A model generated the notes under the pieces. The model saw only the letters and a list, made by a program, of their open reading frames with translations, was not told the DNA's origin and did not search any database. A stretch of 64,000 bases of DNA from the NCBI GenBank assembly GCA_965198795.1, contig OZ240674.1:1540522-1604521 (forward strand), given 5' to 3'. The translations under genes were made by a program, and so were the position numbers. This document shows positions 22,217-54,914 of this stretch, in pieces. The stretch comes from Rhodospirillales bacterium. Its GTDB lineage: Bacteria > Pseudomonadota > Alphaproteobacteria > Rhodospirillales > Casp-alpha2. Position 1 is the first letter of the stretch. Each line of letters starts with the position of its first letter.

Positions 22217-22226
22217 CGGGTTGATC

Positions 22227-27498: not shown

Positions 27499-27533
27499 CG
27501 GCGCGCTCCTCTGAGTTGCTTGAGGCGGTCTAT

Positions 27534-30925: not shown

Positions 30926-30938
30926 CGACGTTTCCGCT

Positions 30939-36349: not shown

Positions 36350-37114
36350 ATGTCCCAGGCGAAGACTACCTATCAAACCTATACAAGCGATGAATCGGTT
36401 GCGAAAGAGTATGCGCGCCGTCAAGCCCGCTTTAGCGAGACCCCGATGGAGTCGGAAAAAATCCTAATCGAGATTGCCAAAAAGGCGGTTCGGGATTTGG
36501 GCGGAGACGCCTTGAGGCTGTCGTTGATCGATCTGGGTTGTTCGACGGGTAATTTCCTTTATCATTTGAAGAACGCCGTGCCGGGGCTGACTCTGACGGG
36601 GCTGGACCTGATGGAAAGCATCGTCGCCGCCGCGCAGCGCGACCCGCGCTTGGAAGGCGTTAACATCACCCGCCAGGATATGCTGGCCGTGGATGACGAC
36701 CAGCAATACGACATCACGGTTTTCAACAAATCGCTTTGTTTCTTCACCGAAGAGCAACATCAGTTGGCCATGCGCAACGCGGCCAAGATCACCAAGCCCG
36801 GCGGCGTGCTGATTATCTTTGACTGGATGACGCCCTGGTTCCAAGATCTGGAAATCCTGGAAAAGACCAAGTGGCATAAGGACGGCTTGCGTATTTTTTA
36901 TCGCAGTTACGACACCATGACCCGTTCGGCCGGGCAGGCCGGCTTTGGTGATCCCACCTTTCAGCCGTTCGATATTCCGATCGATCTGGCGGCGTCCAGC
37001 GATTTGACGGACCACGCGACCTTTACCGTTCAGTCCCAGTCGGGCGAGCGGCTTCAGTTCCGCGGCTGCCTGTCGCAGCCCTGGTGCTTCATGACGGCGC
37101 GCCTCGGCGAGTGA
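36350..37114 (+). CDS. Class I SAM-dependent methyltransferase
   Basis: Motif I LIDLGCSTGNF, post-I LTGLDL, and ..KPGGVLIIFD... Confidence 0.7.
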   Translation: MSQAKTTYQTYTSDESVAKEYARRQARFSETPMESEKILIEIAKKAVRDLGGDALRLSLIDLGCSTGNFLYHLKNAVPGLTLTGLDLMESIVAAAQRDPRLEGVNITRQDMLAVDDDQQYDITVFNKSLCFFTEEQHQLAMRNAAKITKPGGVLIIFDWMTPWFQDLEILEKTKWHKDGLRIFYRSYDTMTRSAGQAGFGDPTFQPFDIPIDLAASSDLTDHATFTVQSQSGERLQFRGCLSQPWCFMTARLGE

Positions 37115-37121
37115 GGGCCGA

Positions 37122-38498
37122 ATGTCCGGGGATCTTGCATGGCTGGAGGGTCATAGCCGTCTGGTGACAGCCAAACAGGATAGCGCCGATGGCATGTGGG
37201 CGTTGATGGAAACGCTGTTTCCTATTTACCGCTCGCTCTGCGGACCCGGTTTCAAGGCCTCGCTGGACGCCATCTCGGGCGTCGTTCCCTTGACCACGAC
37301 CGAAATTCCGTCCGGCCGGAACGTGCACGGCTGGACCGTGCCCAAGGAATTCTCGGTCAAGGAAGCCTGGGTCGAAGCGCCTGGCGGCGCGCGGATCATG
37401 GACTTCGACCGGGACAGTTACGGCCTTTGGCTCTACAGTCAACCGTTCAGCGGAACGGTAACGAGGGATGAGTTGCTGACCCATGTCGGCGTCAACGACG
37501 CCGTGCCGGAAGCGTTGCCGCTGCGTCACACCTATTACCAGGAGAATTGGGGTGTGACGTTACCCAAGGCGACGGCGGAGCAATTGCCGGACGGTGATTA
37601 CAAGGTGCACATCGACACAAAGCTTGAGCCCGGCTGTCTTCGGATCGGCGAGGCCTATCTGCCGGGTGAGTCGGAAGACGAGGTGCTGATCTGCAGTTAC
37701 CTTTGCCACCCGAAGGGCGCCAATGACAACTTAAGCGGCGTGGTCGTCGCGACGGAACTGTTCCGGCTTTTGTCGGAACTCCCGTCGCGCCGCTATTCCT
37801 ATCGGCTGGCTCTCTGGCCGGAAACCATTGGGGCCATCAGCTACATCGCGACTTATCCGGAACGCCTGAGGAAAATGGCGGCCGGATTCTCGATCTCCAT
37901 TTGCGGCGACGCCTCGCCCGTCGGCTACGAACAGACGATCCACGGCGATCAAGCCATCGACCGGGCGATGACCCATGCGCTGGAACTCTGTTCGTTCGAG
38001 AGCGAGGTGCGGGCGTTCAGTCAGATGAGCGGATCGGACATCCAGCATTTCAACGCCGTCGGCGTTCGGGCGCCGTTCGGAACCATCACGCGGAGCGGGC
38101 CCGGCTATGACAATCAGAACACCGGCGTCTATCCGCCCGGCTATTCACGGTATCACTCCAGCGCCGACGACTTGAGTTTCGTCAAGCCGGAAAACTTGCT
38201 TGAGACCCTGCAAGCGGCTTTCCTGGGTCTTCAGACCCTTGAGCGCACGGCGCGCTACAAGGGGACGTTCACGGTCAGCCCGTTCCTTACCAAATACGGC
38301 ATTTATCCTCATCACCACGGCGTCGGGAGCGGCGGCATGGGGAATGTGGTCGCGGACGCCTACTATCAGTTGATGCCCTTCGTCGATGGCGACACGGACC
38401 TTTTACAGATTGCCGAACGCGCCCGGATGCCGATCTTCGCATTCGACGAAGCGGTCGAGGCTTTCAGCCGGGTGGGGCTGATTGAGAAGGTCGGCTGA
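37122..38498 (+). CDS. Aminopeptidase-like (M28-related, DUF4910-type) protein with C-terminal winged-helix
   Basis: ..EVLICSYLCHPKGANDNLSGVVVATELF.. and ..YHSSADDLSFV.. resemble the aminopeptidase-like domain proteins found in polysaccharide loci. The tail ..LLQIAERARMPIFAFDEAVEAFSRVGLIEKV is wHTH-like. Confidence 0.5.
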   Translation: MSGDLAWLEGHSRLVTAKQDSADGMWALMETLFPIYRSLCGPGFKASLDAISGVVPLTTTEIPSGRNVHGWTVPKEFSVKEAWVEAPGGARIMDFDRDSYGLWLYSQPFSGTVTRDELLTHVGVNDAVPEALPLRHTYYQENWGVTLPKATAEQLPDGDYKVHIDTKLEPGCLRIGEAYLPGESEDEVLICSYLCHPKGANDNLSGVVVATELFRLLSELPSRRYSYRLALWPETIGAISYIATYPERLRKMAAGFSISICGDASPVGYEQTIHGDQAIDRAMTHALELCSFESEVRAFSQMSGSDIQHFNAVGVRAPFGTITRSGPGYDNQNTGVYPPGYSRYHSSADDLSFVKPENLLETLQAAFLGLQTLERTARYKGTFTVSPFLTKYGIYPHHHGVGSGGMGNVVADAYYQLMPFVDGDTDLLQIAERARMPIFAFDEAVEAFSRVGLIEKVG

Positions 38499-38505
38499 AC
38501 TCTCT

Positions 38506-39756
38506 TTAGCCCATCGTCACGCCGCCGGACACATGGATTGTCTCGCCTGTTATGTGGCCGGCCTGATCGCTCATCAGAAACGCGATGACGCCGGCGATGT
38601 CTTCCGGTTCGGCCAGCCGTCTCAGGGGCGTGTTCATTTTCGCCAGCATCCTCGCCTTGTCGGGCACGGTTGCGATCATGGCCGTATTTGTCATGCCCGG
38701 AGACACCACGTTCACGCGGACGCCCTTCGGTCCCAGTTCGGACGCGAGGGAGCGCGCCAAGCCGCCGACGGCCGCCTTGACCGAGACATAAGCGGACTGT
38801 TGGGGCGGCGGGGCGCTGTCGCCGAAAATCGAACCCAGCAAAACGACAGATCCCCGGCCTTGCTCGAGCATTACCGGCAACAAACGCTGAATACAGTGAT
38901 ACGCCCCGCCGATTTGGGTTTGGAACTGGCGCATGAAATCGTCCCAGCCAGTGTCCTTGAAGGTCTGCGGCGTCGGTTCCGGAGCGGCGCAATGGACCAG
39001 ACCAGTAACGGCGCCGAAGGCTTGAGAAGCCGAAATCATGGCGTCAACGGCGGCCGGGTCCGCAATATCGCCCCCCACGGCCAGCGCTGTCCCGCCGGCG
39101 TTGACGATCTCTGAAACCACCGCGTCCGCGGCCCGGCTGTTTCGGTGATAATTGACCAGCACGGTGGAGCCCCGCGCGGCCAGGGCGAGAGCCGCGGCCG
39201 CCCCTATGCCGCCGCTGGCGCCGGTCACCAGGACGGCCGAACCATTACGCGGCGCCGGAGCGGTTTCGGCGGAGGCGGCCGCTGGTTCGCCGTCCTTGAC
39301 CGGGGCCGGTTCCGCGCCCAGAAGACGAACGGTGGACTCGCCCGAGACAACCTCATGGCCGTGCTGATTGGTGATCGAGACGCCGCAGACGATGGATTGG
39401 GTGGACGGGGAGAGCTGTTTCACCGCGGATGTGACGGTAATCTTGTCGCCGATGAACACAGGGCGCGCGAACATAAGCGTCTGGGACGTCCAAAGCGCGC
39501 CCTTACCCGGCAGTAACATACCAACCAGCGTCGAGATGAAGGACGACGTCAACATGCCGTGCACGACGCGCCTGCCGAAATTGGCCGAGCGGGCGAATTC
39601 GTCATCCATATGGACCGGATTGAAATCACCGGTCAGCGTGGCGAAGGTCTCCACGTCCTCTTCCGTCACCCGGTGCGTGAGGGAGGCCTGATAGCCGACA
39701 TGAAGGTCGGACCATTTGAATTCCGCGGGCGTGCGGCCGGATGGCGAATAGCTCAT
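38506..39756 (-). CDS. Fusion protein: MaoC-like (R)-hydratase/dehydratase hot-dog domain plus SDR ketoreductase
   Basis: N-terminal ..FATLTGDFNPVHMDDEFAR..FGRRVVHGML.. (MaoC). C-terminal VLVTGASGGIGAA.., ..YVSVKAAV.. (YxxxK), ..SPGMTNT... An ATG at 39756 overlaps the KSIII stop (ATGA). An alternative GTG lies at 39765. Confidence 0.7.
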   Translation of the reverse strand: MSYSPSGRTPAEFKWSDLHVGYQASLTHRVTEEDVETFATLTGDFNPVHMDDEFARSANFGRRVVHGMLTSSFISTLVGMLLPGKGALWTSQTLMFARPVFIGDKITVTSAVKQLSPSTQSIVCGVSITNQHGHEVVSGESTVRLLGAEPAPVKDGEPAAASAETAPAPRNGSAVLVTGASGGIGAAAALALAARGSTVLVNYHRNSRAADAVVSEIVNAGGTALAVGGDIADPAAVDAMISASQAFGAVTGLVHCAAPEPTPQTFKDTGWDDFMRQFQTQIGGAYHCIQRLLPVMLEQGRGSVVLLGSIFGDSAPPPQQSAYVSVKAAVGGLARSLASELGPKGVRVNVVSPGMTNTAMIATVPDKARMLAKMNTPLRRLAEPEDIAGVIAFLMSDQAGHITGETIHVSGGVTMG

Positions 39757-40742
39757 CCCTGCCACCTCATGACGCTGGAGCCGAAAATGAAACCAGCGCC
39801 AACGCCGGAGATCATCACGATATCGTCTTTCTTCAGGCGGCCGCGCGTCACCGCGTCGCAGAGCGTGATGGCCTGCGAGGCGTCGGCCGTGTTGCCGTAC
39901 TCTTCCACGTTGGTGAGGGTCCTGTTCATGGGTAGACGCATTTTGCCCATCAGGAACTCGATCAAGCGCAGGTTCGCCTGGTGGAAAACGAAGAAATCCA
40001 CGTCCTCGACGCTGAACCCCGCTTTCTCAAGCGCGCGTTTCATGGATTTCGGCTGATTCTGGACCACCTGCTTCCAAACTTCCAGGCCGTTGATCTCATA
40101 ATACTGAAGATTGTCGCCGATATTATCGGGGCGCAGCGGATGGCTTGACCCCCCGCCCCGCAATCTGACGGCCTCGAACGCCTTCGGATTGGAAAAGACG
40201 TCGTGGGACAAAAGACCATAGCCGTCGGGGACCCGCCCCAGGACGGCCGCGCCGGCGCCGTCGCCAAAGAAAACGCAGGACGACGGATCAGAATAATCGA
40301 TGAACCGGTTCTGCAGCGCCGCGCCGATCACGAGGACATAATCGCAGGCCGGGTCTTGGGCGATCCGGTCGGCCGCCACGCCAAGGCCAACTTGAAAGCC
40401 GGTGCAGTTCGCCATCAGATCAAACGCGCCCGCGTTGCTCGCTCCGATAAGCTCCTGAATTTTGCACGAAACCGCCGGATAGACGTAATCGCCGGTGAAA
40501 GTGCAGGTCATAACCAGGTCCACCTGCTCCGCGCCGACCCCCGCCATGGCGAGGGCGCTGCGGGCGGCGGCGGCGGACATTGCGGACGCCGTTTCGCCGC
40601 CGCCCGCGCGCCGCCGGGTCCGGATGCCGGTTTTAGCCTCAATGTCGGCCGCGGCCATGCCGCAGGACTTTTCCAGACTCTCGTTGGTGATCAGACCGTC
40701 CGGCAAATATTTGCCGACGCCGATGACGCCGACGCCGCTCAC
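39753..40742 (-). CDS. 3-oxoacyl-ACP synthase III (FabH-like KSIII); start GTG at 40742
   Basis: ..VGVIGVGKYLPD..TASAMSAAAARSAL..FDLMANCTGFQ..FVFHQANLRLIE..EEYGNTADAS.. (Cys-His-Asn triad context). GTGA overlap with the MBL stop at 40739..40742. Confidence 0.8.
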   Translation of the reverse strand: MSGVGVIGVGKYLPDGLITNESLEKSCGMAAADIEAKTGIRTRRRAGGGETASAMSAAAARSALAMAGVGAEQVDLVMTCTFTGDYVYPAVSCKIQELIGASNAGAFDLMANCTGFQVGLGVAADRIAQDPACDYVLVIGAALQNRFIDYSDPSSCVFFGDGAGAAVLGRVPDGYGLLSHDVFSNPKAFEAVRLRGGGSSHPLRPDNIGDNLQYYEINGLEVWKQVVQNQPKSMKRALEKAGFSVEDVDFFVFHQANLRLIEFLMGKMRLPMNRTLTNVEEYGNTADASQAITLCDAVTRGRLKKDDIVMISGVGAGFIFGSSVMRWQG

Positions 40743-41437
40743 CGGAGCATCCCTTCCATGGCGTATTCCGGCGGCGCGTCCTTGTGGCCGGCCCACCAGT
40801 CACAGGCTTCCGCGACCGTCCAGGGGCCGCCATGACCCGGAAACATCAAGGTGTCGGGCGGGAGGGTTTCAAGCAGACGGCTAATCGATTGGGCCAGCCC
40901 CTCACCGCTGGAGCCGGGCAGATCGGTCCGACCGACCAGCCGCTTCATCAGGGTGTCTCCCGTAAAACATACTCCATCCCAGTGATAGCAAACGCCGCCA
41001 TCCGTATGGCCCGGCGTGTGAATAAAGCCGATTTGACCCATGCCGCCAGAGAGCTTCGCCTCATCCAGGAACACATGGGTTTCCGGCACTGTGACCACGG
41101 TGCGATCAAAGCTCATGGCGTAGAGCGTCGCGCGCCGCAAAAGGCGGAAATCACCGCGATGCAGGTGGAACGGCAAGCCGTAAGCCCTGCACATGGCGTC
41201 GAGCGCGCCCACGTGATCGAAGTGCGCATGGGTCAAAAGGATGAATTTCGGCTCGCCGCCCAACTCATTGATCAAGCCGGTCAAACGATTCGCGTCTCCG
41301 CCCGGATCAATCAGCACAGCCTCGCGGCTGGGCTTGTGAAAAACAACATAGGCGTTCTCGCGCCATCGACCGTTCTTAACGGCCGTGATCAGCAAATCGC
41401 CCACTTCGAAACCCGGATCCCGTCTCGCCACGTTCAA
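40739..41437 (-). CDS. MBL-fold metallo-hydrolase (glyoxalase-II-like, possible thioesterase)
   Basis: ..AVLIDPGGD..ILLTHAHFDHVGALD..HTPGHTDGG... The track ORF (to 41965) is an alternate-frame read-through of the upstream SDR gene. The real start is TTG 41437 or GTG 41431, overlapping or abutting the SDR stop (tca 41434..41436). Confidence 0.75.
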   Translation of the reverse strand: MNVARRDPGFEVGDLLITAVKNGRWRENAYVVFHKPSREAVLIDPGGDANRLTGLINELGGEPKFILLTHAHFDHVGALDAMCRAYGLPFHLHRGDFRLLRRATLYAMSFDRTVVTVPETHVFLDEAKLSGGMGQIGFIHTPGHTDGGVCYHWDGVCFTGDTLMKRLVGRTDLPGSSGEGLAQSISRLLETLPPDTLMFPGHGGPWTVAEACDWWAGHKDAPPEYAMEGMLR

Positions 41438-42159
41438 TCGACCAGCCCCACGTACAAAACCTGTCCCGTGACGGCGCTGGCCTTCTCGGAAACGAAAAAG
41501 TCCACCGCGTGACAAATTTCCTCCATGCCGATCATGCGGGGAATTGTCTGAAGGGCGAGCGTGCGCTCTTTCCAGTCCCCATCCTTCGCCAGCTCGCGGG
41601 ATGCGTCGGTGTCCATCATCGCCGGCGCGACCGTGTTGCAGGTGATGCCCTGCGGCGCCAGTTCCCTGGCCAGGACCTTGGTCATTTCCGTAACGCCCGC
41701 CTTGGTCGCGGAATAGATCGCCGTTCCCTCCTGATGTAGCGCGGCCATGGCCGAAGAGATGGTAATGATGCGGCCTTGATGGCTTCGCAGCATTAATTTG
41801 CCCATCTCGCGCAGGGTCAGGAACACGCCAGTCAGATTGACATTGATGAAGTCGTTGTAGACTGGCGCGGTGGTCAGGGATAGATAGAGCGCGGACCGGG
41901 CGAGCCCGGCGTTGCAGATCAGAACGTCCACGGCGCGGAAGGTTTTTCCGACGCTCCGCGCCCAAGCCCGCACGGCCGCCTCGGACGCCAAATCAAGCGC
42001 TGTGTGGTGATAGTTCTCGTGATCAATGGTGGCCTCGCCCCGGCTGCAGCCCGCGACCCGATAGCCCGCAGTCAAATAGTGCTCTGCAAGCGCCCGGCCC
42101 AGGCCGCGGCTGGCGCCGGTGATTACGGCGACGGGGAAAGGGGGCGGGGCGTCAACCAT
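41434..42159 (-). CDS. Short-chain dehydrogenase/reductase (FabG-like ketoreductase)
   Basis: VAVITGASRGLGRAL, NAG, and YSATKAGV (YxxxK). Confidence 0.8.
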   Translation of the reverse strand: MVDAPPPFPVAVITGASRGLGRALAEHYLTAGYRVAGCSRGEATIDHENYHHTALDLASEAAVRAWARSVGKTFRAVDVLICNAGLARSALYLSLTTAPVYNDFINVNLTGVFLTLREMGKLMLRSHQGRIITISSAMAALHQEGTAIYSATKAGVTEMTKVLARELAPQGITCNTVAPAMMDTDASRELAKDGDWKERTLALQTIPRMIGMEEICHAVDFFVSEKASAVTGQVLYVGLVD

Positions 42160-42176
42160 GATGGGGGCTCGAATTC

Positions 42177-42479
42177 TTAAGCTTTAAGCGTGGCGATGTG
42201 GTCCGCGAGAATGCCGGCGGTCAACGTCGGGCTGTTGATGTCGAAGCCCTGGATGTCAGTCAGAACAATCGCCAGATCTTCGCCGGTTTCCTGGGATAGC
42301 CGGTCTTCCACGTCCATGATGAAGGTTACGAACCCCAGCGAGTCCAGGCCGCTGTCCGCGCCGCCTCCCATCAGGACGGTGTCGTCGGTGGCGCTGATCT
42401 CAACCTTGATGGTTCCGGACCGTCTCAGGCTGTCCAGGCTGGCTTGGATGAGACCCAGGGCTTTCCGCTTTTCCATCAT
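42177..42479 (-). CDS. Acyl carrier protein (ACP1)
   Basis: About 100 aa and acidic, with the phosphopantetheine attachment motif GLDSLGFV. Confidence 0.7.
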   Translation of the reverse strand: MMEKRKALGLIQASLDSLRRSGTIKVEISATDDTVLMGGGADSGLDSLGFVTFIMDVEDRLSQETGEDLAIVLTDIQGFDINSPTLTAGILADHIATLKA

Positions 42480-42696
42480 TCGTCACGCTCCTCGACGTTT
42501 GGCTTTCCCGGTGATCAACAGATCGGTCCCGGATAGCGCGGCGGGTAATCTTTTATCAACCAAAGTTTGGTTTTCTTTCGCTCGTATTAGAAAGCAAAAC
42601 GGTGAATATTCCGTTATTTTCTTGCAATCCCCGGACCGGGGTTCGGCGGCAGACGCCGTTCCGCCGGCCGTTCCTGACCCGGAAGGAGTTCAAGCC

Positions 42697-43656
42697 TTGG
42701 CGATGATCTCGAATCCGTCCGCCGTTGTCCCCGGAAACCGGCGGGACTGTCCAGAACTCAGCCGTATCGTCGAGTTGATCGCGGGCGGGAACCCTTTGCA
42801 GAAAAAGCGCATCGAAGGATTTCTGGAAACCCGGGATCTGGAGTACTGGAGTTTCGCCGAGGGTCTAAGCCGCATTCTCAATCACGGCTTTCTGACCGAC
42901 GAGGCGGCGAGGGACGAGGCGGCGAGGGCCTATAACAAGATGTGCATGGACTTCCTGTCCGAGCAGATACGTTTCAAAAAGACCGGCAAATACAGAATTG
43001 ACGACGCCGCGAAAGCCGTCGCCGAGGTTTATGACGACCTGGAAGTCATGCGCTATTACATGGTCGGCCTGTTGGTGTCCTATATGTTCTGGCCGAATCA
43101 TTATGCGCTGTTCCGGTTCTTCGACAAGCACTTGCCCAAGACGCCGCCTGGGAACTATCTTGAGGTCGGCGTCGGCCATGGTCTGTTCACCTCCACGATG
43201 CTCAGCCGGTTCCCCGGCGTTACCGGCGCCGCCATCGATATCAGCGAGACTTCGATCAAGACAGCGCGCGAGACCCTGACGGCTTTCCAGGTCGATCAGT
43301 CCCGGCTGAGATTTATCCATGGCGATTATTTGACGACCGAGCCCGACGGCGGTCCCTTCGATTTCATCATCATGGGCGAGGTTCTGGAGCACGTGAACGA
43401 CGCGCCCGCGTTCATGCGCCGCACCAGGAACCTGCTGGCGCCCGGCGGCGCGGTCTACATGACGACGTGCGCCAATTGCCCGGCGCTCGACCACGTTTAT
43501 CATTTTCACTCTGCGGGCGAGATCAGGGACCTCATGGTTGAAAGCGGATTTCGCATCGTGGACGACCTGGCGCTGGCCGCCGAGGATATTCCCGAGGACA
43601 AGTGGGAGGAGGAATTGGTGACCGTGAATTATTGCGCCCTGCTGGAGCACGCTTGA
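42697..43656 (+). CDS. Class I SAM-dependent methyltransferase (start TTG 42697 or ATG 42703)
   Basis: YLEVGVGHGLF motif I, ..GAAIDIS.., ..LAPGGAVYMTT... ggaaggag at 42681..42688. The long N-terminal extension in the track ORF (from 42190) is antisense to ACP1. Confidence 0.7.
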   Translation: MAMISNPSAVVPGNRRDCPELSRIVELIAGGNPLQKKRIEGFLETRDLEYWSFAEGLSRILNHGFLTDEAARDEAARAYNKMCMDFLSEQIRFKKTGKYRIDDAAKAVAEVYDDLEVMRYYMVGLLVSYMFWPNHYALFRFFDKHLPKTPPGNYLEVGVGHGLFTSTMLSRFPGVTGAAIDISETSIKTARETLTAFQVDQSRLRFIHGDYLTTEPDGGPFDFIIMGEVLEHVNDAPAFMRRTRNLLAPGGAVYMTTCANCPALDHVYHFHSAGEIRDLMVESGFRIVDDLALAAEDIPEDKWEEELVTVNYCALLEHA

Positions 43657-45482
43657 TGGCGTCCGGCGCGGCCGTGTTCGGGACCAGCTTCTCCGAGGCC
43701 CTGCCGCGCGCCAGGAAAGAAGGGTCCTACGCGGCTCTCGCGGCCTTGGCGAACGCGAAGGACGCGGATGACGCGCAGGAAGGCCTCAAGCCATACAAGA
43801 TCGCGGTGCTTCGAAACATGACGGTGGAGCCGGTCCTGCCTGTGCTGGAGGCCGAACTGCTGATGGCCGGTCTATACCCGGACGTTCATGTGGCGGATTT
43901 CGACACCATCGCGTCCGACGCCATGAACCCGGACTCGGACCTTTACGCCCTCGCGCCCGACTGCGTCGTCATCGCCCAGTGGCCGGAAACGCTGACGCCG
44001 GCCCTGTGGTCGCGGTTTCCGACCCTTTCCCGGGAAATGGTCGATGAAGAAATTCAGCGGGTCGCGGACGATCTTAAAATGGTCATGAGCGCCCTTCGCG
44101 AAAAAACCGGCGTTCCTGTCCTGGCGACCAACATCCCCTGCCCAGGTCACGGCGCCATGGGTATGATGGAAGCGCAATCGGGGGAACATCAGCGGGCCGC
44201 CATCGACCGGTTGAACAGGGCGTTGATCAAGGCGGCCGGGCCGTTCGGAGACGTCTACTGGATCGACCTGGCCGGACTGATCAATCGGTTGGGATACGAA
44301 CAGGCCTTTGACCGCCGCTATTGGCAGATCGCGCGCGCCCCCCTGGGCAAATCGGCCCTGGTTCCGCTTGGCCGGCATATGGCGGCGCTGATAAGGGCGC
44401 TGACCGGCGGCGTTCGGAAATGCCTGGTGCTGGACTGCGACAACACGCTTTGGGGCGGGATCGTCGGCGAGGACGGCATGGCGGGCGTCAAGGTGGGCGC
44501 CGACTATCCGGGTTCGGCCTACCGGGCGTTTCAACAGGCCGTGTTGAACCTGAAGGCCCGCGGCGTCATGCTGGCCATCAACTCCAAGAACAATGAAGCG
44601 GACGTGCTGGAGGTGTTTCGGGACCATCCCGGCATGTTGCTCCGCGAGGATGATTTTGTCGCCATGCGCGTCAACTGGCGGGACAAGGCCTCCAATTTGC
44701 GCGAACTGGCGGAAGAATTGAACATCGGACTAGACGCGCTGGTGTTCGCGGATGACAGCGCCTTTGAATGTGATTTCGTCCGCGCCGCCCTGCCGGAAGT
44801 CGCGGTGCTGCATTTACAGGGCGGCGCGAGCGGTTACGCGGACAAGCTCGCCGAAGGGGCCTACTTCGACCGCTTGAGCTTGTCGGCGGAGGACGCCAAG
44901 CGGAGCGAGATGTATCTGGCGGACCGCAAGCGCAAAAATATGGCGGCTGGCGCGGCGTCCATTGAGGATTATCTGCGGGGCCTTGAGATCGAGGCTGAAA
45001 TCGCCGAACCGGCGCCGGCGGATATTCCCCGCGTCGCGCAGCTCACGCAAAAAACCAATCAGTTCAACCTAACCACCAGGCGCTACACGGAAGGCGACGT
45101 GAGCCGGTTCATCAAGGATCCGGCGAAAAAGGTCTACGCCATGAAGCTCCGCGACAAGATCGCCGACATCGGCCTCGTCGGCGTGGCGATTGCGTCGGAA
45201 GAGAGCGGCGCCTGCGTCATAGACACTTTCTTGATGTCATGCCGGGCGCTGGGGCGCGGCGCGGAAGACGCCATGCTGAGCCGGGTGTTGCGGGACGCGG
45301 GCGGCGCGCCGGTCATTGGACGCTTTCTGCCCACCGGGAAGAACGCCCAGGTGGCGCGGTTTTTTCCGAAGCGCGGGTTCGAGGAAACCGCGCGGACCAA
45401 AGAGGCGGTTGAATGGAGGCTTCAGCCCGGCGATAAGCTGGTCGAGGCGCCCGATTGGATCAACGTGCGCTCGCCCGGCTAG
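43656..45482 (+). CDS. FkbH-like HAD-superfamily IIIC protein with C-terminal GNAT-like domain
   Basis: DxDxT core CLVLDCDNTLWGGIVGEDG, ..LAINSKNNE.., ..FADDSAFE.., and C-terminal ..DTFLMSCRALGRGAE... The ATG at 43656 overlaps the preceding stop (TGATG). Confidence 0.75.
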   Translation: MASGAAVFGTSFSEALPRARKEGSYAALAALANAKDADDAQEGLKPYKIAVLRNMTVEPVLPVLEAELLMAGLYPDVHVADFDTIASDAMNPDSDLYALAPDCVVIAQWPETLTPALWSRFPTLSREMVDEEIQRVADDLKMVMSALREKTGVPVLATNIPCPGHGAMGMMEAQSGEHQRAAIDRLNRALIKAAGPFGDVYWIDLAGLINRLGYEQAFDRRYWQIARAPLGKSALVPLGRHMAALIRALTGGVRKCLVLDCDNTLWGGIVGEDGMAGVKVGADYPGSAYRAFQQAVLNLKARGVMLAINSKNNEADVLEVFRDHPGMLLREDDFVAMRVNWRDKASNLRELAEELNIGLDALVFADDSAFECDFVRAALPEVAVLHLQGGASGYADKLAEGAYFDRLSLSAEDAKRSEMYLADRKRKNMAAGAASIEDYLRGLEIEAEIAEPAPADIPRVAQLTQKTNQFNLTTRRYTEGDVSRFIKDPAKKVYAMKLRDKIADIGLVGVAIASEESGACVIDTFLMSCRALGRGAEDAMLSRVLRDAGGAPVIGRFLPTGKNAQVARFFPKRGFEETARTKEAVEWRLQPGDKLVEAPDWINVRSPG

Positions 45483-45502
45483 GGCTTTTTGAGGACATCA
45501 CC

Positions 45503-45748
45503 ATGAGCGATAACGAAAACCGTCTGAAATCAGTGATCGGGGACATTCTGAAGATTGACGCCGGTTCAATCGGCGATGAGACGTCCGTTGACAGTGTAGA
45601 GGCGTGGGATTCGCTCCGTCATCTCAATCTGGTGCTGGCCATTGAGGGTGAATTCGGCATTTCGTTGACCGAGGAGCAGACGGTGGAAATTCTGAATTAT
45701 CCGCTGATCAAGCTTGTGATGGCGGAACACGGGATCGACTTCGGATGA
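45503..45748 (+). CDS. Acyl carrier protein-like (ACP2)
   Basis: 81 aa. ..VDSVEAWDSLRHLNLVLAIEGEF.. has a carrier-protein serine motif (DSL) in helix-II context. Confidence 0.65.
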   Translation: MSDNENRLKSVIGDILKIDAGSIGDETSVDSVEAWDSLRHLNLVLAIEGEFGISLTEEQTVEILNYPLIKLVMAEHGIDFG

Positions 45749-47124
45749 CCGAGGCCGCCGCCGTTAAACGAGCCGACGAGGTTTTGCTGGAGCGTGTCGC
45801 TTCGGGCGGCGGCCTTCCGGCGCTCTATTGGCGCGGCGCTGAAATTACCTATGACCAGCTTTGGGAAAATGTGTCCGCGTGGCGCAAGCGCCTGCGGCGG
45901 GACGGCGTTGAAGCGGGCGACGTCCTGGCGTTTCATGGGGATTTCAGCCCCGGCACGTCCGCGCTCATGCTGGCGGGGGTCGCCGAGGGGGCCATCCTGG
46001 CGCCGTTGACCTGGGATGTGGACTCCGAGCTTGAAAATCTGCTGGCCATCGCCGGCGCCGGGACCTTGTACCGATTCGACGCGGATGACCGGGCGGCAAG
46101 GGAAACATACGCGTACGGCCCCGCGCCGCTCTTGATCGAGGAGTTCCGCGAGCGGGGTCATCCGGGCCTTGTGGTCTTTACTTCCGGCTCCACGGGTAAG
46201 CCCAAGGGAATTTTGCAGGACGTGGCGCTTGTTTCGAGAAAGTTCGTCGCCGAGCGTCCCGGCTGGCGGACGGTGTTGTTCCTGATGATGGATCACTTCG
46301 GTGGATTCAACACGTTCCTCTCCACGTTCGCTTATCGAGGCATGGGGGTGTGCCTGGGCGGCGCGCGCGATCCGGAAACCGTCGCGAAAGCCATTGCCGG
46401 GAGCCGGGCGACCTTGTTGCCGACAACGCCGACGTTCCTGAATTTCCTGATCGCCAGCCGGGCTTACGCGGCTCACGACCTGTCGTCGGTGGAGCTGATA
46501 ACATACGGCACGGAACTGATGCCCGAAACGACCTTGAACGAGATCGCGGCCATTTTTCCGAACGCCAGGTTGAAGCAGACTTATGGGCTGTCGGAACTGG
46601 GCGTTTTACGATCCGAGTCTGAAGACTCCGGCTCGCTCTGGCTGAAAGTGGGGGGCCGGGGTTTCGAGACCAAGGTCGTCAACGGCGTTCTCTGGATTCG
46701 TTCGGAGGCGAACATGGTGGGCTATCTGAACGCGCCTAGCCCCTTTGACGACGCGGGCTGGATGTGCACCGGCGACGAGGTCGAGGTCCGCGGCGATTAC
46801 ATGCGTTTCATGGGCCGGAAAACCGAGGTCATCAACACGGGCGGCAAGAAAGTCTACCCGATCGAGGTCGAAAATTTCCTGATGAGCCTGCCAAACGTGG
46901 GGAACGCGACGGTGGAAGCGCGACCGCATCCGATCATGGGGCAAGTCGTCCAGGCGAGAATTTCCGTGCTGGAACCGGAGGACTCCATGGCCATGACCGA
47001 GCGTCTGCGCGGCCTTTGTAACGAAAAGCTCGCGAAATACAAAGTGCCGGTGAGGTTCGTTCAGATTGATGCGGACGGCCATCACAACATGCGGTTCAAG
47101 AAGGTTCGGACGAATATTTCCTGA
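45745..47124 (+). CDS. AMP-dependent synthetase/ligase (acyl-CoA or acyl-ACP ligase, ANL superfamily)
   Basis: A3 motif VVFTSGSTGKPKGI, ..YGLSE.., ..TGD.., ..GRKTEVINTGGKKVYP... Its start overlaps the ACP2 stop. Confidence 0.85.
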   Translation: MTEAAAVKRADEVLLERVASGGGLPALYWRGAEITYDQLWENVSAWRKRLRRDGVEAGDVLAFHGDFSPGTSALMLAGVAEGAILAPLTWDVDSELENLLAIAGAGTLYRFDADDRAARETYAYGPAPLLIEEFRERGHPGLVVFTSGSTGKPKGILQDVALVSRKFVAERPGWRTVLFLMMDHFGGFNTFLSTFAYRGMGVCLGGARDPETVAKAIAGSRATLLPTTPTFLNFLIASRAYAAHDLSSVELITYGTELMPETTLNEIAAIFPNARLKQTYGLSELGVLRSESEDSGSLWLKVGGRGFETKVVNGVLWIRSEANMVGYLNAPSPFDDAGWMCTGDEVEVRGDYMRFMGRKTEVINTGGKKVYPIEVENFLMSLPNVGNATVEARPHPIMGQVVQARISVLEPEDSMAMTERLRGLCNEKLAKYKVPVRFVQIDADGHHNMRFKKVRTNIS

Positions 47125-47134
47125 AGTCCGGCGC

Positions 47135-47980
47135 TCAAGCCGGCCGCCAGCGCTCTTCCCGTTTCAGACCAGCCATCTCGTCATCCTTGCCGTTCCTGAT
47201 CCAGGCGTCCAACTCGTCGCCATTGGTGATGTAGCAATACATGTCCTCCCGGAAGAGGTCTTCGTTGACTCGGTGAATGTCGCGCGCGAGGCCGCTTTCC
47301 ATCGGGATTCGTCTGTTGTCGCCGACTTTTACCGCGCCATCGGCCCGAAGCGCGCGTCCGAATCCGGTAATGTCCCATTCGGGTACGGCGTGAAGCGAGC
47401 GGGAATACATCACCTCCGCGCAGGGACCGATCTCCTCGCCGTCCTCGAACATGCGCCCGGCGAAGCGTTTGAAGTACCGGTACGGGACCATCAGGATTTC
47501 CTCGGCGTGATGCATGAGACTGCACGACACCCAGGGGACGCCCAGGACGCAGACGCGGGCGTTCACGCCGCACAACCAGCCGAGCACGCCGTCCAGCCCC
47601 CAGGCGGTCGTGCAGGGAAGGGTCAGAAGTTCCTCCGCCCGGGGACCCTTGACCAGGTAACTGTTCATGGGCGAGCGGCTGCGCCGGAAGGCGCCCCCGG
47701 CAAGCGCCGTTTCCGGCAGGCTGCCCGTGTCCGGCGCGGTTCGGACGAGATCGAACGTCCGGTTCCTCGCGAAATCGAGATAGCTGTAGGCGGGCAGCAC
47801 AAGCGTTCTGCCCTCGCCGGCGACATCCTCCAGAATCTCCAGAACCCGCGCCGCCGCCTGGTCCGGCGGCCAACCGAAGGCGTGGACGAAAGTCCAAAGA
47901 CCCGAATAGACTGCGATGACGTCGTTATCCGGGGGCAGGAGCGCTCGAAAGACGTCTTCCAGGTCCCGTTCGGTCGGCAC
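47135..47980 (-). CDS. AAC(3)-family (aminoglycoside 3-N-acetyltransferase-like) N-acyltransferase
   Basis: ..GRTLVLPAYS..RSRSPMNSYLVKGPRAEELL..ARVCVLGVPWVSCSLMHHAEEILMVPY.. follows the AAC(3)/Antibiotic_NAT pattern as I remember it. Confidence 0.5.
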   Translation of the reverse strand: MPTERDLEDVFRALLPPDNDVIAVYSGLWTFVHAFGWPPDQAAARVLEILEDVAGEGRTLVLPAYSYLDFARNRTFDLVRTAPDTGSLPETALAGGAFRRSRSPMNSYLVKGPRAEELLTLPCTTAWGLDGVLGWLCGVNARVCVLGVPWVSCSLMHHAEEILMVPYRYFKRFAGRMFEDGEEIGPCAEVMYSRSLHAVPEWDITGFGRALRADGAVKVGDNRRIPMESGLARDIHRVNEDLFREDMYCYITNGDELDAWIRNGKDDEMAGLKREERWRPA

Positions 47981-47982: not shown

Positions 47983-48429
47983 TCAGCCGCCTTCTTGAAC
48001 ACCGGGCTCGCTCTCGGCCTCAAGCAGTTTCCGTACGCCTTCATGAAACGCCCCCAAAACCTCGGCCTCGTGAACAACAAGCTTCTGGGTCAGCTTCATG
48101 CCTTTGTATATTTTACCCTGGTCAACGGCTTGGAAGACTTGATCGGCGATCTCCCGCGTATTGGGCGCCGCCGCGACGAAATCGTCGAGGTAGGTTTTAA
48201 AGACCGCCAGGTACGTGGCTTCTTTTTTCGGGAACATGTAAGCGCACTGCAGCGCGAAATAGACTCGGGCCGCCGGCGTGGCGGCCTCGTCCTCGGTCAA
48301 GACTTCCTTCTCGCGCAAAATCGCCGACTCGTTATGCACCAGCAACTTCGCGTTTCCGCCGATATTCTCGACGACGGCGCCGTTGATGACCACTTTGTCG
48401 CCAGTCTTGACGTCAAGTTTCAAAGGCAT
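47983..48429 (-). CDS. flbT: Flagellin synthesis regulator FlbT (148 aa; start MPLKLDV at 48429)
   Basis: MPLKLDVKTGDKVVINGAVVENIGGNAKLLVHNESAILREKEVLTEDEAATPAARVYFALQ.. matches the FlbT N-terminal pattern. The track ORF start (48696) adds 89 non-FlbT residues. Confidence 0.8.
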   Translation of the reverse strand: MPLKLDVKTGDKVVINGAVVENIGGNAKLLVHNESAILREKEVLTEDEAATPAARVYFALQCAYMFPKKEATYLAVFKTYLDDFVAAAPNTREIADQVFQAVDQGKIYKGMKLTQKLVVHEAEVLGAFHEGVRKLLEAESEPGVQEGG

Positions 48430-48620
48430 TTCAATCCGACTCCCGAGTCCCGGCGTTACGCGGCCATGGTCAGGCCGGTTCGGCGGAATGGTAACGCCAA
48501 ACCCTCCGCTTTTGAATAACGGGTTTCCATGCCATTGGTTTTGCGGGGATTTCTTCCGCAGCGCCCGCGAAATCATGGACCGGACCATTAGGACCGATTC
48601 CGCCGCAGGCCGTTTCGCCG

Positions 48621-48714
48621 TCCCCCGCGCGGGCGGGAATCCAGCGCGGGGGCTCGCGCTGCAAGCAATCATGAGTGACCGTAGAGCGGTCTGCATTCCC
48701 GCCCGCGCGGGGGA
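48621..48714. repeat. Perfect 20-bp inverted repeat (54-nt spacer) in the flbT-flagellin intergenic region
   Basis: tcccccgcgcgggcgggaat (48621..48640) versus attcccgcccgcgcggggga (48695..48714). A partial third copy gcgcgggaat lies at 48725..48734. The spacer contains its own 7-bp hairpin cagcgcg/cgcgctg. Confidence 0.9.
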
Positions 48715-50323: not shown

Positions 50324-50361
50324 CTCCGTCGGCGGAAAGACCGCCGGCGGAGTTTCGTTTT
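50324..50361 (+). terminator. Intrinsic terminator after flagellin (possibly bidirectional)
   Basis: Stem ctccgtcggcgg / ccgccggcggag (one G-U pair), loop aaaga, then tttcgtttt. A second hairpin gaaggcg-cttt-cgccttc lies at 50287..50304. Confidence 0.7.
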
Positions 50362-51878
50362 CAAGCCGGGCCGTAAAGAGCGTCAACCATTTGTTTGACG
50401 GCTGACTCCCAATCCGATGGCGCTTCTTGACGGAAGAGCCGCGTCGCCGGATACCAAGGTGTTGTCCCGCCCGTTTGACCCCAGCGCCAATCGGCGACGA
50501 ACGGCAGCACGATCCAGGTCGTCAGGCCCATAGCGCCGGACAGGTGGGCGGCCGACGTGTCGACGGAGATGGTCAGGTCCAGCTTCGCCATCAACTTCGC
50601 CGTATCCGCGTAGTCCCTCAGCCCTTCAGACCAGTCGTCGAGTTTTCCGGCGAGGCCCTCAACGGAAATCTCTCCGGCGCCCCCCATTTGCAGGCTGACC
50701 CACCGCGCGCTGGTTCCATTGATCAGTGGCTTCAGAAAAGAGAGAGGCATGGATCTCTCCGCATCGGCCCGATGTTCGGGATTTCCGCGCCAAACCAGGC
50801 CGATTTTTTCGGGAGGCCAAGCCGGCGTTTTGATGTCCGGGCGCTCAAGATAGGGGGCGGGCGGCGAGTCGGAGGGAGACGGTTTTCCTAAAAGAAGCGG
50901 GAGGCTCATCAAAGGAACATGAAAGTCGGTTCGCGTCCGGATACGGGGAACATCCGAGGAATGGACGCCGTCGGCGCCGGACACGCCGGCCAAAAGGCGC
51001 GCGAGGGACGGCGGGCACACAAACTCGACGCGCCGGCAGCGTTCCCGAAGCGCCGCGAGATAGCGGACGAATTGAATGGTGTCGCCTTGACCCTGCTCGG
51101 CGTACACGCAAACGGATTTGCCTTCGACCGGCTGGCCGGTCCAAGGCTCCGCCTTCTCGACGCCCAATGGCGGAACAAGCAACCGCCGCCGCGCCTCAAA
51201 GGCTCTGTATCCGTCCTCCCACCGTTCAAGGCAAAGCAACGTCTGGGCTTTGTTCCATTGTGCGAGAAACGAGCCAGGATCCATTCGGGCCGCCTTTTCA
51301 AGCGTCTCGCACGCGGCCTCGAATTGGCCCAGGCGCTGTTGGCATAAACCCAGATTTATCAATAAGCTGGCGTCGTCCCGAATCCGCGCTGAAGCGTTCT
51401 CGAAATCGGTCAGGGCGTCGTGAAGCCGGTTCATGCGGTAGAACGCGTTTCCCCGATTGAATAACGCGCGTCCATGACGGGGGTCTTGCCGGATAATTTG
51501 GCTGAAGCCATTGATCGCGGCGGTGAAATCTCCGGCGTCATACGAGAGTCTGGCCAGATTAAACAAGGCGTCGCGATGGCCGGGATTGAATTCAACGGCT
51601 TTCTTCCATTGAGCCCGGGCGTCATGAGTCCGGTTCTGTGATTTCAGACAGACCCCGTAATTGTAGTGAATGTCTGATCTGCCGGGCAGGCGGACGAGAG
51701 CGTCTTCGTATAGCCCGGCGGCTTTCTCATGCTCGCCTTCCCGGTCCGCCAACACGGCCGACAGGTAAAAGGCTTCCGAAACGTCAGCGCCGCAAAGAGC
51801 GTCCGCGAGCTTTCGGGCTTCCCGCCTTTCTCCCGAGATTATGAGCCGCCTCAAATCGCCGACCCGGGGGGATGTCAT
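50361..51878 (-). CDS. TPR-repeat protein fused to a GT9-like GT-B glycosyltransferase domain (paralog of 17322..18860)
   Basis: TPR repeats in the N-terminal half. ..GQGDTIQFVRYL.. and ..TISVDTSAAHLSGAMGLTTWIVLPFVADWRWGQTGGTTPWY... Its start overlaps the maf stop. Confidence 0.6.
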   Translation of the reverse strand: MTSPRVGDLRRLIISGERREARKLADALCGADVSEAFYLSAVLADREGEHEKAAGLYEDALVRLPGRSDIHYNYGVCLKSQNRTHDARAQWKKAVEFNPGHRDALFNLARLSYDAGDFTAAINGFSQIIRQDPRHGRALFNRGNAFYRMNRLHDALTDFENASARIRDDASLLINLGLCQQRLGQFEAACETLEKAARMDPGSFLAQWNKAQTLLCLERWEDGYRAFEARRRLLVPPLGVEKAEPWTGQPVEGKSVCVYAEQGQGDTIQFVRYLAALRERCRRVEFVCPPSLARLLAGVSGADGVHSSDVPRIRTRTDFHVPLMSLPLLLGKPSPSDSPPAPYLERPDIKTPAWPPEKIGLVWRGNPEHRADAERSMPLSFLKPLINGTSARWVSLQMGGAGEISVEGLAGKLDDWSEGLRDYADTAKLMAKLDLTISVDTSAAHLSGAMGLTTWIVLPFVADWRWGQTGGTTPWYPATRLFRQEAPSDWESAVKQMVDALYGPA

Positions 51879-54083: not shown

Positions 54084-54914
54084 ATGACCGACGGCCCTTC
54101 CATCGCATCCGTTTTCGCCGCCGTTGGGCAGGCCAATCAACGCGCCCAATTTAATATTCAGTTCAACAATCTTCAGAACACCTTGATTCGGCGGTTCAAC
54201 GAAGACGCCGAGGAGGCTGCGGAGACTCCGTTTTCGGTCGAGCGGGAAATCAACATTCTCGAAGACAACCTCGAAGACCTTACAAACGGCGCCTCGGTGC
54301 TGAGGGAGTTCGGCCAAGGGAACGTGAACAACGCTTCACAGTTGCGGTGGCTGTTGGGCCAAGTAGGAGAGCTTTTTGGGACATTCAACAGCGATGACGC
54401 GGTGACGGCGGAAGAAGTAAGCGCGTTCACGGCCCGGCGTGACGCGATCATTCAACAGGTCAACAATCTGACGATTTTCAGCCACCCCGAGATCGTGACG
54501 CCAAATGTCATTCAGGATTTGAGGGACAGCGCCAACCAACTGGCGTCCGTCGAGCCTCAAGCGGGCGCGCTTTCGGATCCGGCCAACGCCGCCGTGTCCG
54601 AACGATTGACGGCGTTTCGAGACCGAATCACCAACGGCGTCCTTATTTTGCGGAATACGGTCGATGTCGTGAATAACCTGGAAAAAGGCATCACGCGGCA
54701 GGTGACTTCAGTGCGAACGCGGCTTACCTCAATCACGCGCGATGAACGACAGCGGCAGGAAACGGAAATCGAGAATCTCAGGGCCCGGCTGGGTAACCAG
54801 TTGCGCGCCATTTCCCTGACCTTCGAAGCCAACAGCGCCCTGGCGGATCAATTGAATGTTCGATTGAATCCGGCCATTCCCGATCCTGGCTCGGTTGTCA
54901 GCATCCTGACGTAA
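54084..54914 (+). CDS. Hypothetical, apparently helix-rich/possibly coiled-coil protein (276 aa), no recognisable family
   Basis: aggag lies 8 nt upstream of the ATG. Coherent composition rich in helix formers. I saw no signal peptide or TM segment. Divergent from maf across an AT-rich spacer. Confidence 0.5.
   Translation: MTDGPSIASVFAAVGQANQRAQFNIQFNNLQNTLIRRFNEDAEEAAETPFSVEREINILEDNLEDLTNGASVLREFGQGNVNNASQLRWLLGQVGELFGTFNSDDAVTAEEVSAFTARRDAIIQQVNNLTIFSHPEIVTPNVIQDLRDSANQLASVEPQAGALSDPANAAVSERLTAFRDRITNGVLILRNTVDVVNNLEKGITRQVTSVRTRLTSITRDERQRQETEIENLRARLGNQLRAISLTFEANSALADQLNVRLNPAIPDPGSVVSILT

Follow-up and report, generated by a model that had tools for sequence, protein, structure and literature searches.

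A predicted acyl-tailoring gene module in a flagellar glycosylation island of a Rhodospirillales bacterium

Analysis of a 64,000-nucleotide stretch of a Rhodospirillales genome (contig OZ240674.1; the whole stretch is called the window here, and positions are counted from its first letter) revealed a set of twelve genes for carrier-protein-based acyl chemistry, lying between a block of nonulosonic acid (NulO) sugar genes and the flagellar genes flbT and flagellin. It is quite likely that this set is the acyl-tailoring module of a flagellar glycosylation island. With moderate confidence, we favor a reading in which the module assembles, on carrier proteins, an unusual acyl group that is short and oxygenated and probably O-methylated, and attaches it to flagellar NulO as an N-acyl substituent. 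The specific seven-step route proposed below, in which we infer every step from the loading of glycerate by an FkbH-like protein onward, is tentative.

Flagellar NulO carry a variety of N-acyl groups, with effects on filament assembly, surface charge, immune recognition and phage attachment. The enzymes behind the unusual ones are largely uncharacterized; for the di-O-methylglyceroyl (DMGA) sugar of Campylobacter jejuni, genetics is limited to cj1295. In the window the gene set is complete and every catalytic motif is intact, and comparison with related loci splits the set into layers: an FkbH-acyl carrier protein (ACP) base, a methyltransferase, a dehydratase-ketoreductase (DH-KR), an extension by 3-oxoacyl-ACP synthase III (KSIII), and a transfer pair. 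The genes are listed in their order along the window, with MT1 and MT2 denoting the two methyltransferases.

36350-37114, plus strand: MT1, class I S-adenosylmethionine-dependent methyltransferase (Pfam Methyltransf_12/25/11), directly 5' of the DUF4910 gene
37122-38498, plus strand: DUF4910/DUF2172/M28-like protein (DUF4910 222 bits, DUF2172 74.5 bits, Peptidase_M28 24.8 bits, HTH_47)
38506-39756, minus strand: MaoC::SDR, a DH-KR fusion of a MaoC dehydratase and a short-chain dehydrogenase/reductase (SDR); start at the ATG at 39756, longest open reading frame (ORF) 38506-39765, 419 amino acids (aa)
39753-40742, minus strand: KSIII, FabH-type (ACP_syn_III 69 bits, ACP_syn_III_C 99.5 bits)
40739-41437, minus strand: metallo-beta-lactamase (MBL)-fold hydrolase, glyoxalase-II/YcbL type (Lactamase_B 93.5 bits; HAHFDH, an HxHxDH motif)
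41434-42159, minus strand: FabG-like SDR ketoreductase (adh_short 156 bits; TGASRGLG, NAG, YSATK)
42177-42479, minus strand: ACP1, a divergent 100-aa carrier protein with a DSL motif, first gene of the minus-strand operon
42480-42696: intergenic region between the divergent ACP1 and MT2 operons
42697 (or 42703)-43656, plus strand: MT2, class I methyltransferase (Pfam, 64.8 bits) with an N-terminal helical cap
43656-45482, plus strand: FkbH-like protein (FkbH_N, HAD-IIIC and a C-terminal transferase-like domain)
45503-45748, plus strand: ACP2, 81 aa (PP-binding 25.3 bits; DSL motif)
45745-47124, plus strand: ANL ligase (AMP-binding 106.7 bits, AMP-binding_C 33.8 bits; motifs TSGSTGKPK and GRKTEVINTGGKKVYPIEVE)
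47135-47980, minus strand: AAC(3)-like N-acyltransferase (Antibiotic_NAT 71.2 bits, cutoff 25; HHAE motif)
47983-48429, minus strand: flbT, flagellin-synthesis regulator; start uncertain, longest ORF 47983-48696, 237 aa
48839-50269, plus strand: flagellin, flanking the flbT side of the cassette

Domains and motifs of the gene set

ORFs were listed and then filtered by GC content at third codon positions, and domains were assigned by Pfam and NCBIfam profile searches of the encoded proteins. The initial annotation, made from the sequence alone, had described a self-contained ten-gene line at 38506-47980. The searches recovered all ten genes with the domains named for them and with catalytic motifs intact, after small corrections to the coordinates of MaoC::SDR, KSIII, MBL, MT2, FkbH and ACP2, and the motifs it had quoted (DCDNT, TSGSTGKPK, and DSL in both ACPs) are present. 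The set is not confined to that interval, however: judged by gene content and order, the functional unit is predicted to be twelve genes (36350-47980), the ten-gene block together with the upstream MT1 and DUF4910 genes. Stop and start codons overlap at three junctions on the minus strand, as annotated (TTGA at SDR/MBL, GTGA at MBL/KSIII and ATGA at KSIII/MaoC::SDR), and at two on the plus strand (TGATG at MT2/FkbH and ATGA at ACP2/ANL).

The FkbH-like protein matches TIGR01686 (281 bits; cutoff 146.65) and TIGR01681 (HAD-SF-IIIC, 56.1 bits; cutoff 35.75) in NCBIfam and FkbH_N (38.1 bits; cutoff 27) in Pfam. It carries DCDNT at residues 260-264, SCR at 528-530 and an SKN motif, and residues D260, C261, D262 and C529 are invariant across 17 homologues. 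Its nearest PDB match is the uncharacterized 3slr (155 bits). Members of the FkbH family load glyceryl on ACP, and the tetronate literature (including Sun et al. 2008) ties glyceryl-S-ACP to FkbH. We propose that the protein acts as a glyceryl-S-ACP2 synthase, the gene for ACP2 starting 20 nt past that for FkbH. For MT2, the predicted structure (AlphaFold2, mean pLDDT score 91.8) was grouped by Foldseek with small-molecule O- and C-methyltransferases (DnrK, Fur6, SgvM and MrsA) at template-modelling (TM) scores of ~0.5, a comparison that does not separate O- from C-methylation. MT2 is proposed to be a cassette-specific methyltransferase of the ACP2-bound C3 unit.

The MaoC::SDR ORF contains both MaoC_dehydratas (83.9 bits) and adh_short_C2 (187.2 bits) domains, with an intact hydratase-2 motif (FATLTGDFNPVHMDDEFA), TGASGGIG and YVSVK. 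Its SDR half has a YxxxK motif and scores best as FabG-like; it is of the ketoreductase type and not FabI-like. The initial annotation had noted the lack of a malonyl-CoA:ACP transacylase and of an enoyl reductase; this holds for the window proteins scanned, among which we found neither the transacylase nor an SDR of FabI type (Yx6K motif). KSIII exceeds the cutoff of PRK09352 (291 bits against 249) and falls slightly under that of TIGR00747 fabH (273.9 against 292.1). Its catalytic Cys (CTGF), His (HQAN) and Asn (GNTA) are in place, and true FabH enzymes are its closest matches of known structure (8vd9, 213 bits). The top PDB matches of the MBL-fold protein are 7ev5, 2zwr, 7l0b and 2xf4, of which the last two are named hydroxyacylglutathione hydrolases; since hydrolases of this kind act on lactoyl thioesters, the match fits the release of a hydroxyacyl thioester, and we propose that MBL is a thioesterase for a (2-)hydroxyacyl thioester. 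The FabG-like SDR scores 164 bits with TIGR01830, under the cutoff of that model. ACP1 had no match in Pfam or NCBIfam; a profile built from seven orthologues, in which the LDS motif is invariant, matches the solved ACP 2l4b (E = 7e-4).

The remaining genes concern transfer. Because the AAC(3)-like protein reaches only 41.7 bits with NCBIfam AAC_3 (cutoff 270), the fold-level Pfam model alone being passed, we class it as an AAC(3)-fold protein and not as a resistance AAC(3); its PDB matches, to AAC(3) enzymes and FrbF, are weak. It starts 2 nt past the stop codon of flbT, in agreement with the annotation that the two abut, and the two genes are apparently co-transcribed. The Pfam FlbT domain spans residues 92-214 of the 237-aa ORF and orthologues are 154-175 aa long, so the true flbT start is probably near 48429. 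We infer that the AAC(3)-like protein is the transferase that places the acyl group on the sugar amine. The DUF4910 protein has a C-terminal winged helix, matches the "putative peptidase" 3k9t in the PDB (243 bits), and shares its Pfam family with C. jejuni Cj1295; by analogy, we propose that it is a de-N-acetylase that frees the sugar amine. MT1 is a candidate for a second O-methyltransferase, acting on either the acyl group or the sugar.

Domains of the surrounding proteins confirmed the flagellar and NulO context. The window is a flagellar gene cluster (an FlgE-like hook protein, FliK, FlgK, flagellin, FlbT and Maf by Pfam), and the flagellar genes enclose a glycan island of ~30 kb.

Precedents and proposed route

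The initial annotation could not map the gene set to a characterized pathway. According to the literature, however, the same domain repertoire is found in cj1295-cj1304 of C. jejuni, which likewise combines a flagellar NulO island, maf, a DUF2172/M28-like protein, AAC(3)-type and fkbH-domain genes, FabH2 and dedicated ACPs, and which yields a sugar whose N-acyl group is derived from glycerate and O-methylated. Flagellin of C. jejuni 11168 carries 5-N-(2,3-di-O-methylglyceroyl)-pseudaminic acid (DMGA-Pse), which is lost in a cj1295 knockout (PMC3068675). Cj1295 is described as a DUF2172/M28 protein (PMC6321876), and Hitchen et al. proposed that it removes an N-acetyl group (PMC3068675). Strain 12664 (where the fkbH-domain gene cj1302 is a pseudogene) and strain 12661 (where cj1301 is missing) both lack the DMGA glycan (PMC7099621); in the same glycosylation locus, cj1303 encodes FabH2 and Cj1299 is the ACP. 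The earlier suggestion of a glycerate-derived, O-methylated N-acyl group on flagellar NulO thus has a documented precedent. In contrast, MaoC::SDR, MBL and the FabG-like SDR of the window are not reported for the C. jejuni locus in the literature found. DMGA requires neither dehydration nor chain extension, and the extra DH-KR, MBL and ketoreductase genes argue for a product that differs from DMGA.

A second precedent concerns the DH-KR fusion. In the biosynthesis of FR901464 and lankacidin, bifunctional DH-KR proteins make lactyl-S-ACP from glyceryl-S-ACP (PMC4765723), and these lactyl-S-ACP starter pathways resemble the window in having an FkbH-type loader, a carrier protein and a dehydratase-ketoreductase fusion. 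The FR901464 and lankacidin systems feed modular polyketide synthases, whereas the window set sits in sugar loci and its dehydratase is of the MaoC/hydratase-2 type.

Other flagellin glycosylation islands share parts of the set. In Pseudomonas syringae, vioS (KSIII), vioR (reductase), acp, vioB (acyltransferase) and vioM (methyltransferase) provide flagellin with N-(3-hydroxybutanoyl)-2-O-methylviosamine, a modified sugar that is missing in mutants (PMC3927599). Like the P. aeruginosa a-type islands, this locus has a KSIII, a 3-oxoacyl-ACP reductase and an ACP, with a methyltransferase present; unlike the window, the viosamine island is without FkbH, a second ACP, DH-KR, MBL and ANL, its acceptor is dTDP-viosamine and not NulO, and its transferase belongs to another family. 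In the polar flagellin islands of Aeromonas group II, genes for an ACP, a 3-oxoacyl-ACP reductase and an AMP-dependent synthetase are placed between pse genes, but these islands use LuxC/LuxE-type enzymes, lack FkbH and KSIII, and have putative functions. Acyl lines built on carrier proteins are therefore already known in the flagellin glycosylation islands of C. jejuni, P. syringae and Aeromonas; for a cassette that contains DH-KR, KSIII, MBL and ANL, and for its product, no description was found in the literature. The AAC(3)-like protein shares the Antibiotic_NAT fold and HHAE segment with AAC(3) aminoglycoside N-acetyltransferases and FrbF. Unlike the resistance enzymes, its subfamily is small and lies in flagellar and NulO loci in the contexts fetched, and its donor would presumably be a larger acyl thioester. 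FrbF transfers acetyl to the amine of a CMP-linked substrate, which we take to resemble a CMP-sugar acceptor. In the O-antigen locus of Vibrio cholerae O1, the perosamine N-tetronate genes rfbK-O encode an ACP, an ANL ligase and reductases for a short hydroxy-acyl N-substituent; enzymes, product and context all differ from those of the window.

In the proposed route, FkbH would load a glycerate unit on ACP2, MaoC::SDR would dehydrate and reduce it (glyceryl-ACP2 to pyruvoyl-ACP2 to lactyl-ACP2), and MT2 would O-methylate the ACP2-bound unit. KSIII would then condense the (O-methyl)lactyl primer with malonyl-ACP1 in one extension, and reduction of the 3-keto group by the FabG-like SDR would give a C5 chain of the 3-hydroxy-4-hydroxy(or methoxy)pentanoyl type. 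The glyoxalase-II-like MBL would free the acid, which we propose that the ANL ligase re-activates for transfer by a CoA-type transferase. DUF4910 would de-N-acetylate the sugar, leaving a free amine for the AAC(3)-fold enzyme to acylate, and MT1 would add a further methyl.

A broader conjecture, which we regard as doubtful, is that nine of the genes (ACP1, SDR, MBL, KSIII, MaoC::SDR, MT2, FkbH, ACP2 and ANL; the nine-gene core) form a miniature, free-standing type II polyketide-like line that would join a lactyl or O-methyl-lactyl starter to one malonate, placing on NulO a C5 hydroxy/methoxy-acyl group that has not previously been described, and that the AAC(3)-fold branch and the Cj1295-type deacetylase are natural "acyl-swap" machinery for flagellar sugars. 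If true of the AAC(3)-fold branch, this would suggest a housekeeping origin for the aminoglycoside-resistance enzyme fold. A literature search for methoxypropanoyl or hydroxy-methoxy-pentanoyl N-acyl groups on sugars returned nothing usable. Such groups occur in mycobacterial glycolipids. As a possible product we also considered the unusual CMP-sugars of Magnetospirillum gryphiswaldense, whose masses, by the authors' account, at first fit additional acetyl and methyl groups and are assigned to a longer sugar backbone (bioRxiv 10.64898/2026.04.20.719630); nothing links that strain to the cassette, and we claim no connection.

Related loci and competing readings

To place the set in context, we surveyed 89 FkbH loci, sampled by FkbH similarity and phylogenetically non-independent; a scan of a genome collection supplied the best 80 FkbH loci, none of them from Campylobacter. 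FkbH and ACP2 occur alone in 50 of the 89 loci, and FkbH without a detected ACP in 9; ACP2-like genes follow FkbH in ~77. An MT2-like gene joins FkbH and ACP2 in seven loci. In another seven, MaoC::SDR joins them, always adjacent and four times next to NeuB; the stand-alone trio beside NeuB is found in Acidobacteriota loci. The full cassette is present in 12 loci and a partial one in two. KSIII accompanies FkbH only where MaoC::SDR is present (14 of 21 loci, against none of ~66 loci without it), and MaoC::SDR adjoins FkbH/ACP2 in all full cassettes too. Because KSIII never occurs without MaoC::SDR and because of the module combinations across the 89 loci, the survey is suggestive of a layered pathway in which the ACP2-bound C3 unit would be the substrate of both MT2 and DH-KR, and their product that of the KSIII line. 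Since MaoC::SDR neighbors FkbH-ACP in seven loci without KSIII, and since DH-KR proteins have a precedent in making lactyl-ACP, it most likely converts glyceryl-ACP and is not part of a fatty-acid-like cycle.

The same data bear on a reading in which the set makes two independent acyl groups, each for a different NulO amine (N5 or N7): FkbH, ACP2 and MT2 (with or without MT1) would give a mono- or di-O-methylglyceroyl group, KSIII, ACP1 and SDR would give 3-hydroxybutanoyl-ACP, and MaoC::SDR and MBL would be editing or accessory enzymes. The C. jejuni locus, where Cj1295, an fkbH-domain gene, FabH2 and ACPs occur together in one flagellar locus, is compatible with this, as is the N-(3-hydroxybutanoyl)-viosamine made by vioS/vioR/acp on flagellin (PMC3927599). 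The window itself has two methyltransferases and two divergent operons with one ACP each, and triads of MT2-like, FkbH and ACP genes occur without other cassette genes. Nevertheless, KSIII, ACP1, SDR and MBL join FkbH-ACP only where MaoC::SDR is also present, and all cassette genes form a single co-directional operon in loci L082, L084, L005 and L088. The direct adjacency of MaoC::SDR to FkbH/ACP2 in loci that lack KSIII argues against an accessory role in the KSIII line, and a single candidate N-acyltransferase is linked to the cassette. We therefore consider two separate acyl groups unlikely.

The closest loci come from Rhodospirillales metagenome-assembled genomes (MAGs), with 56-75% protein identity. 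The same twelve genes, in the same arrangement, lie beside FlbT/flagellin and NulO genes in L001 (a Logan contig), L002 and L003 (both Rhodospirillales MAGs), and in L085 the cassette and an AAC(3)-like gene lie beside FlaF, FlbT, flagellin and Maf. In these four loci, the closest relatives of the window, as in the window itself, the cassette has the NulO block on one side and flbT/flagellin on the other, and maf is close by; this bears out the earlier claim of a short-acyl carrier line tied to NulO and, in this lineage, to the flagellum. MT1 has a 40%-identical orthologue at the same position in L001-L003.

Beyond this lineage, the survey upheld the flagellar link only in part. The nine-gene core recurs across phyla outside a flagellar context, with 42-66% identity for most proteins and often as one co-directional operon; KSIII is among the best-conserved cassette proteins (58-73% identity across phyla), and ANL orthologues in cassette loci are 51-74% identical. 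In L005 (Solirubrobacterales), L006 (Gemmatimonadaceae), L081 (Ignavibacteriales) and L084, the core lies among glycosyltransferases, Wzx, Wzz and Wzi, together with a WbpM-like dehydratase, DegT, and LbH or GNAT acyltransferases. It is flanked by NeuB and CTP_transf_3 in L082/L083, lies among Pse-like genes in L088, and occurs with NeuB, GNAT and CTP_transf_3 in L089. Among the 12 loci with at least six of the nine core genes, eight have no flagellar gene within 10 kb (L082 and L083 being copies of one contig). By this comparison, the core is not intrinsically flagellar. Flagellar and non-flagellar copies across phyla, and the 566 homologous clusters of MT2 alone (the 120 listed all at least 54% identical), indicate that the cassette is common and well conserved. 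FkbH itself has more than 7,400 homologues, the best 120 of which are 45-61% identical to it along their full length. At this scale (at least 566 clusters for MT2 and, for FkbH, at least 120 with 45% identity or more), solving the pathway would give a function to FkbH-like "HAD-IIIC phosphatase" genes, of which polysaccharide and flagellar loci hold thousands, and to an AAC(3)-fold subfamily now labelled as an antibiotic-resistance enzyme.

These non-flagellar copies raise the possibility that the cassette serves a lipopolysaccharide O-antigen or a capsule with an N-acylated amino sugar or NulO, its flagellar neighbors being incidental. Loci L005, L006, L081, L084 and L088, where the cassette is surrounded by GT1, GT2 and GT4 glycosyltransferases and the polysaccharide genes named above, fit such a role, as do the eight loci remote from flagellar genes. 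For the window, however, this reading is improbable: the cassette lies between the NulO block and flbT/flagellin here and in the four closest relatives, the AAC(3)-like gene starts 2 nt past flbT, the pair of AAC(3)-like and DUF4910 genes accompanies flagellin, maf and NeuB in L086 and L087, and none of the window proteins scanned was a Wzx, Wzy or Wzz.

The transfer genes follow a distribution of their own. The AAC(3)-like subfamily is small (32 homologous clusters found), and the four contexts fetched (L085-L087, and L001-L003 by tblastn) are flagellar and NulO loci. DUF4910 orthologues with 47-51% identity accompany it in L001-L003, L086 and L087. In L086 and L087, which lack both the FkbH cassette and MT1, the pair sits with a NeuB/formyltransferase/deacetylase/amidotransferase block, flagellins and Maf, and the carrier-protein line is a different one: an ANL of 485-487 aa (~25% identical to the window ANL in L086, where alignment was possible at all), an unrelated 80-aa ACP, radical-SAM enzymes and a methyltransferase. 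L089 holds a further methyltransferase-ACP-ANL-AAC(3) line. In polysaccharide versions of the cassette, a GNAT directly follows ANL (L081, L088 and L089) or ACP2 (L082/L083, which have no ANL there), and in the window the AAC(3)-like gene holds this slot. From these gene contents we conclude that AAC(3)-like and DUF4910 proteins are predicted to be the constant "swap" enzymes of alphaproteobacterial flagellar islands, with interchangeable acyl-building lines.

The alternative lines that accompany AAC(3)-like genes extend over 8784-16039 in L086 and 6446-12212 in L087 (both with DUF4910) and 18306-20948 in L089. They combine an ANL of 485-511 aa, a 79-80-aa ACP and a methyltransferase, with radical-SAM enzymes in L086 and L087 and an amine oxidase in L087, and they probably make other unusual N-acyl or aminoacyl groups on flagellar sugars.

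Finally, it is highly improbable that the genes form a small cluster for a secondary metabolite of the tetronate/butenolide or methoxymalonyl type with no role in glycosylation: FkbH, a discrete ACP and a FabH-like enzyme together are a hallmark of tetronate ring formation, and the tetronate literature links glyceryl-S-ACP with FkbH, but the locus has no polyketide synthase, nonribosomal peptide synthetase or Agg4/Agg5-like genes and no alpha/beta-hydrolase or acyltransferase partners of the tetronate type, no domains of an FkbK-type 3-hydroxyacyl-CoA dehydrogenase or FkbI-type acyl-CoA dehydrogenase were found among the twelve proteins, KSIII is closest to true FabH, and the cassette consistently lies in sugar, NulO or polysaccharide loci. 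On the missing partner enzymes and the sugar-locus context we reject the methoxymalonyl-ACP pathway (FkbG-K) and the tetronate glycerate-utilization set.

Several points weigh against the reading that we favor, a module that builds an O-methylated acyl group and transfers it to flagellar NulO. The cassette lies in polysaccharide and not flagellar loci in several phyla, and sampling by FkbH similarity yields non-independent loci and leaves KSIII lines without FkbH outside the sample. The likeness to the C. jejuni locus is at the domain level, taken from published gene descriptions; DMGA keeps both glycerate oxygens and needs no dehydratase or C-C bond, and FabH2 in that locus is not explained by the proposed route. 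In both 11168 variants the AAC(3)-like Cj1296/7 is out of frame, and DMGA is made when Cj1295 is on (PMC3068675, Table 1). Because the sugar is made nonetheless, an AAC(3)-like transferase is not obligatory in C. jejuni, and the assignment of the AAC(3)-like protein as transferase is not secure. In L085, no DUF4910 gene lies within 10 kb. With Fur6, SgvM and MrsA also among its Foldseek matches, MT2 could instead methylate carbon. The homology of the MaoC domain to the polyketide DH* domains that make lactyl-ACP is putative, the two being likened by architecture and neighborhood, and the identity of the product is a prediction from sequence.

Neighboring features of the island

The rest of the island encodes NeuB, three cytidylyltransferases, two DegT aminotransferases, HisH/HisF and an asparagine-synthase-type amidotransferase, as well as GNATs, a formyltransferase-like protein, a polysaccharide deacetylase and two proteins with tetratricopeptide repeats (TPR) and a GT9-like domain. 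The region 20463-31697 holds the cytidylyltransferase genes together with two DegT and two GFO/IDH/MocA genes:

21476-22216: cytidylyltransferase gene
23504-24271: cytidylyltransferase gene
30939-31697: cytidylyltransferase gene

The cytidylyltransferases, DegT, GFO/IDH/MocA, HisH/HisF and the amidotransferase suggest more than one NulO pathway and an acetamidino modification. The TPR and GT9-like proteins and Maf (17322-18860, 50361-51878 and 51875-53869, all on the minus strand) are three candidate flagellin glycosyltransferases in one island; the architecture of the two TPR and GT9-like proteins recalls that of the Caulobacter flagellin glycosyltransferase FlmG.

In the intergenic region between ACP1 and MT2, alignment with L001-L003 revealed a conserved block at 42560-42625. 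It includes AACGGTGAATATTCCGTT at 42598-42615, a short inverted repeat (AACGG-N8-CCGTT), and may be an operator or promoter element. A scan of this region found no sigma-54-like (flagellar-type) site and no strong sigma-70-like site, and consensus promoter and terminator scans gave matches at chance level.

Three further ORFs have no Pfam match. A 369-aa ORF (25006-26115, minus strand) lies between hisF and the GNAT/cytidylyltransferase block, and its counterpart in L001 is 80% identical, the highest value among the island proteins compared and above that of the cassette enzymes. Near maf is a 276-aa ORF (54084-54914, plus strand); a 274-aa gene without a Pfam match stands beside maf in both L085 and L087 and is likened to it by size and position. 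A 1074-aa ORF (57648-60872, minus strand) adjoins flgK, and over this stretch the GC content falls to 50-59%, against ~60-63% in the island.

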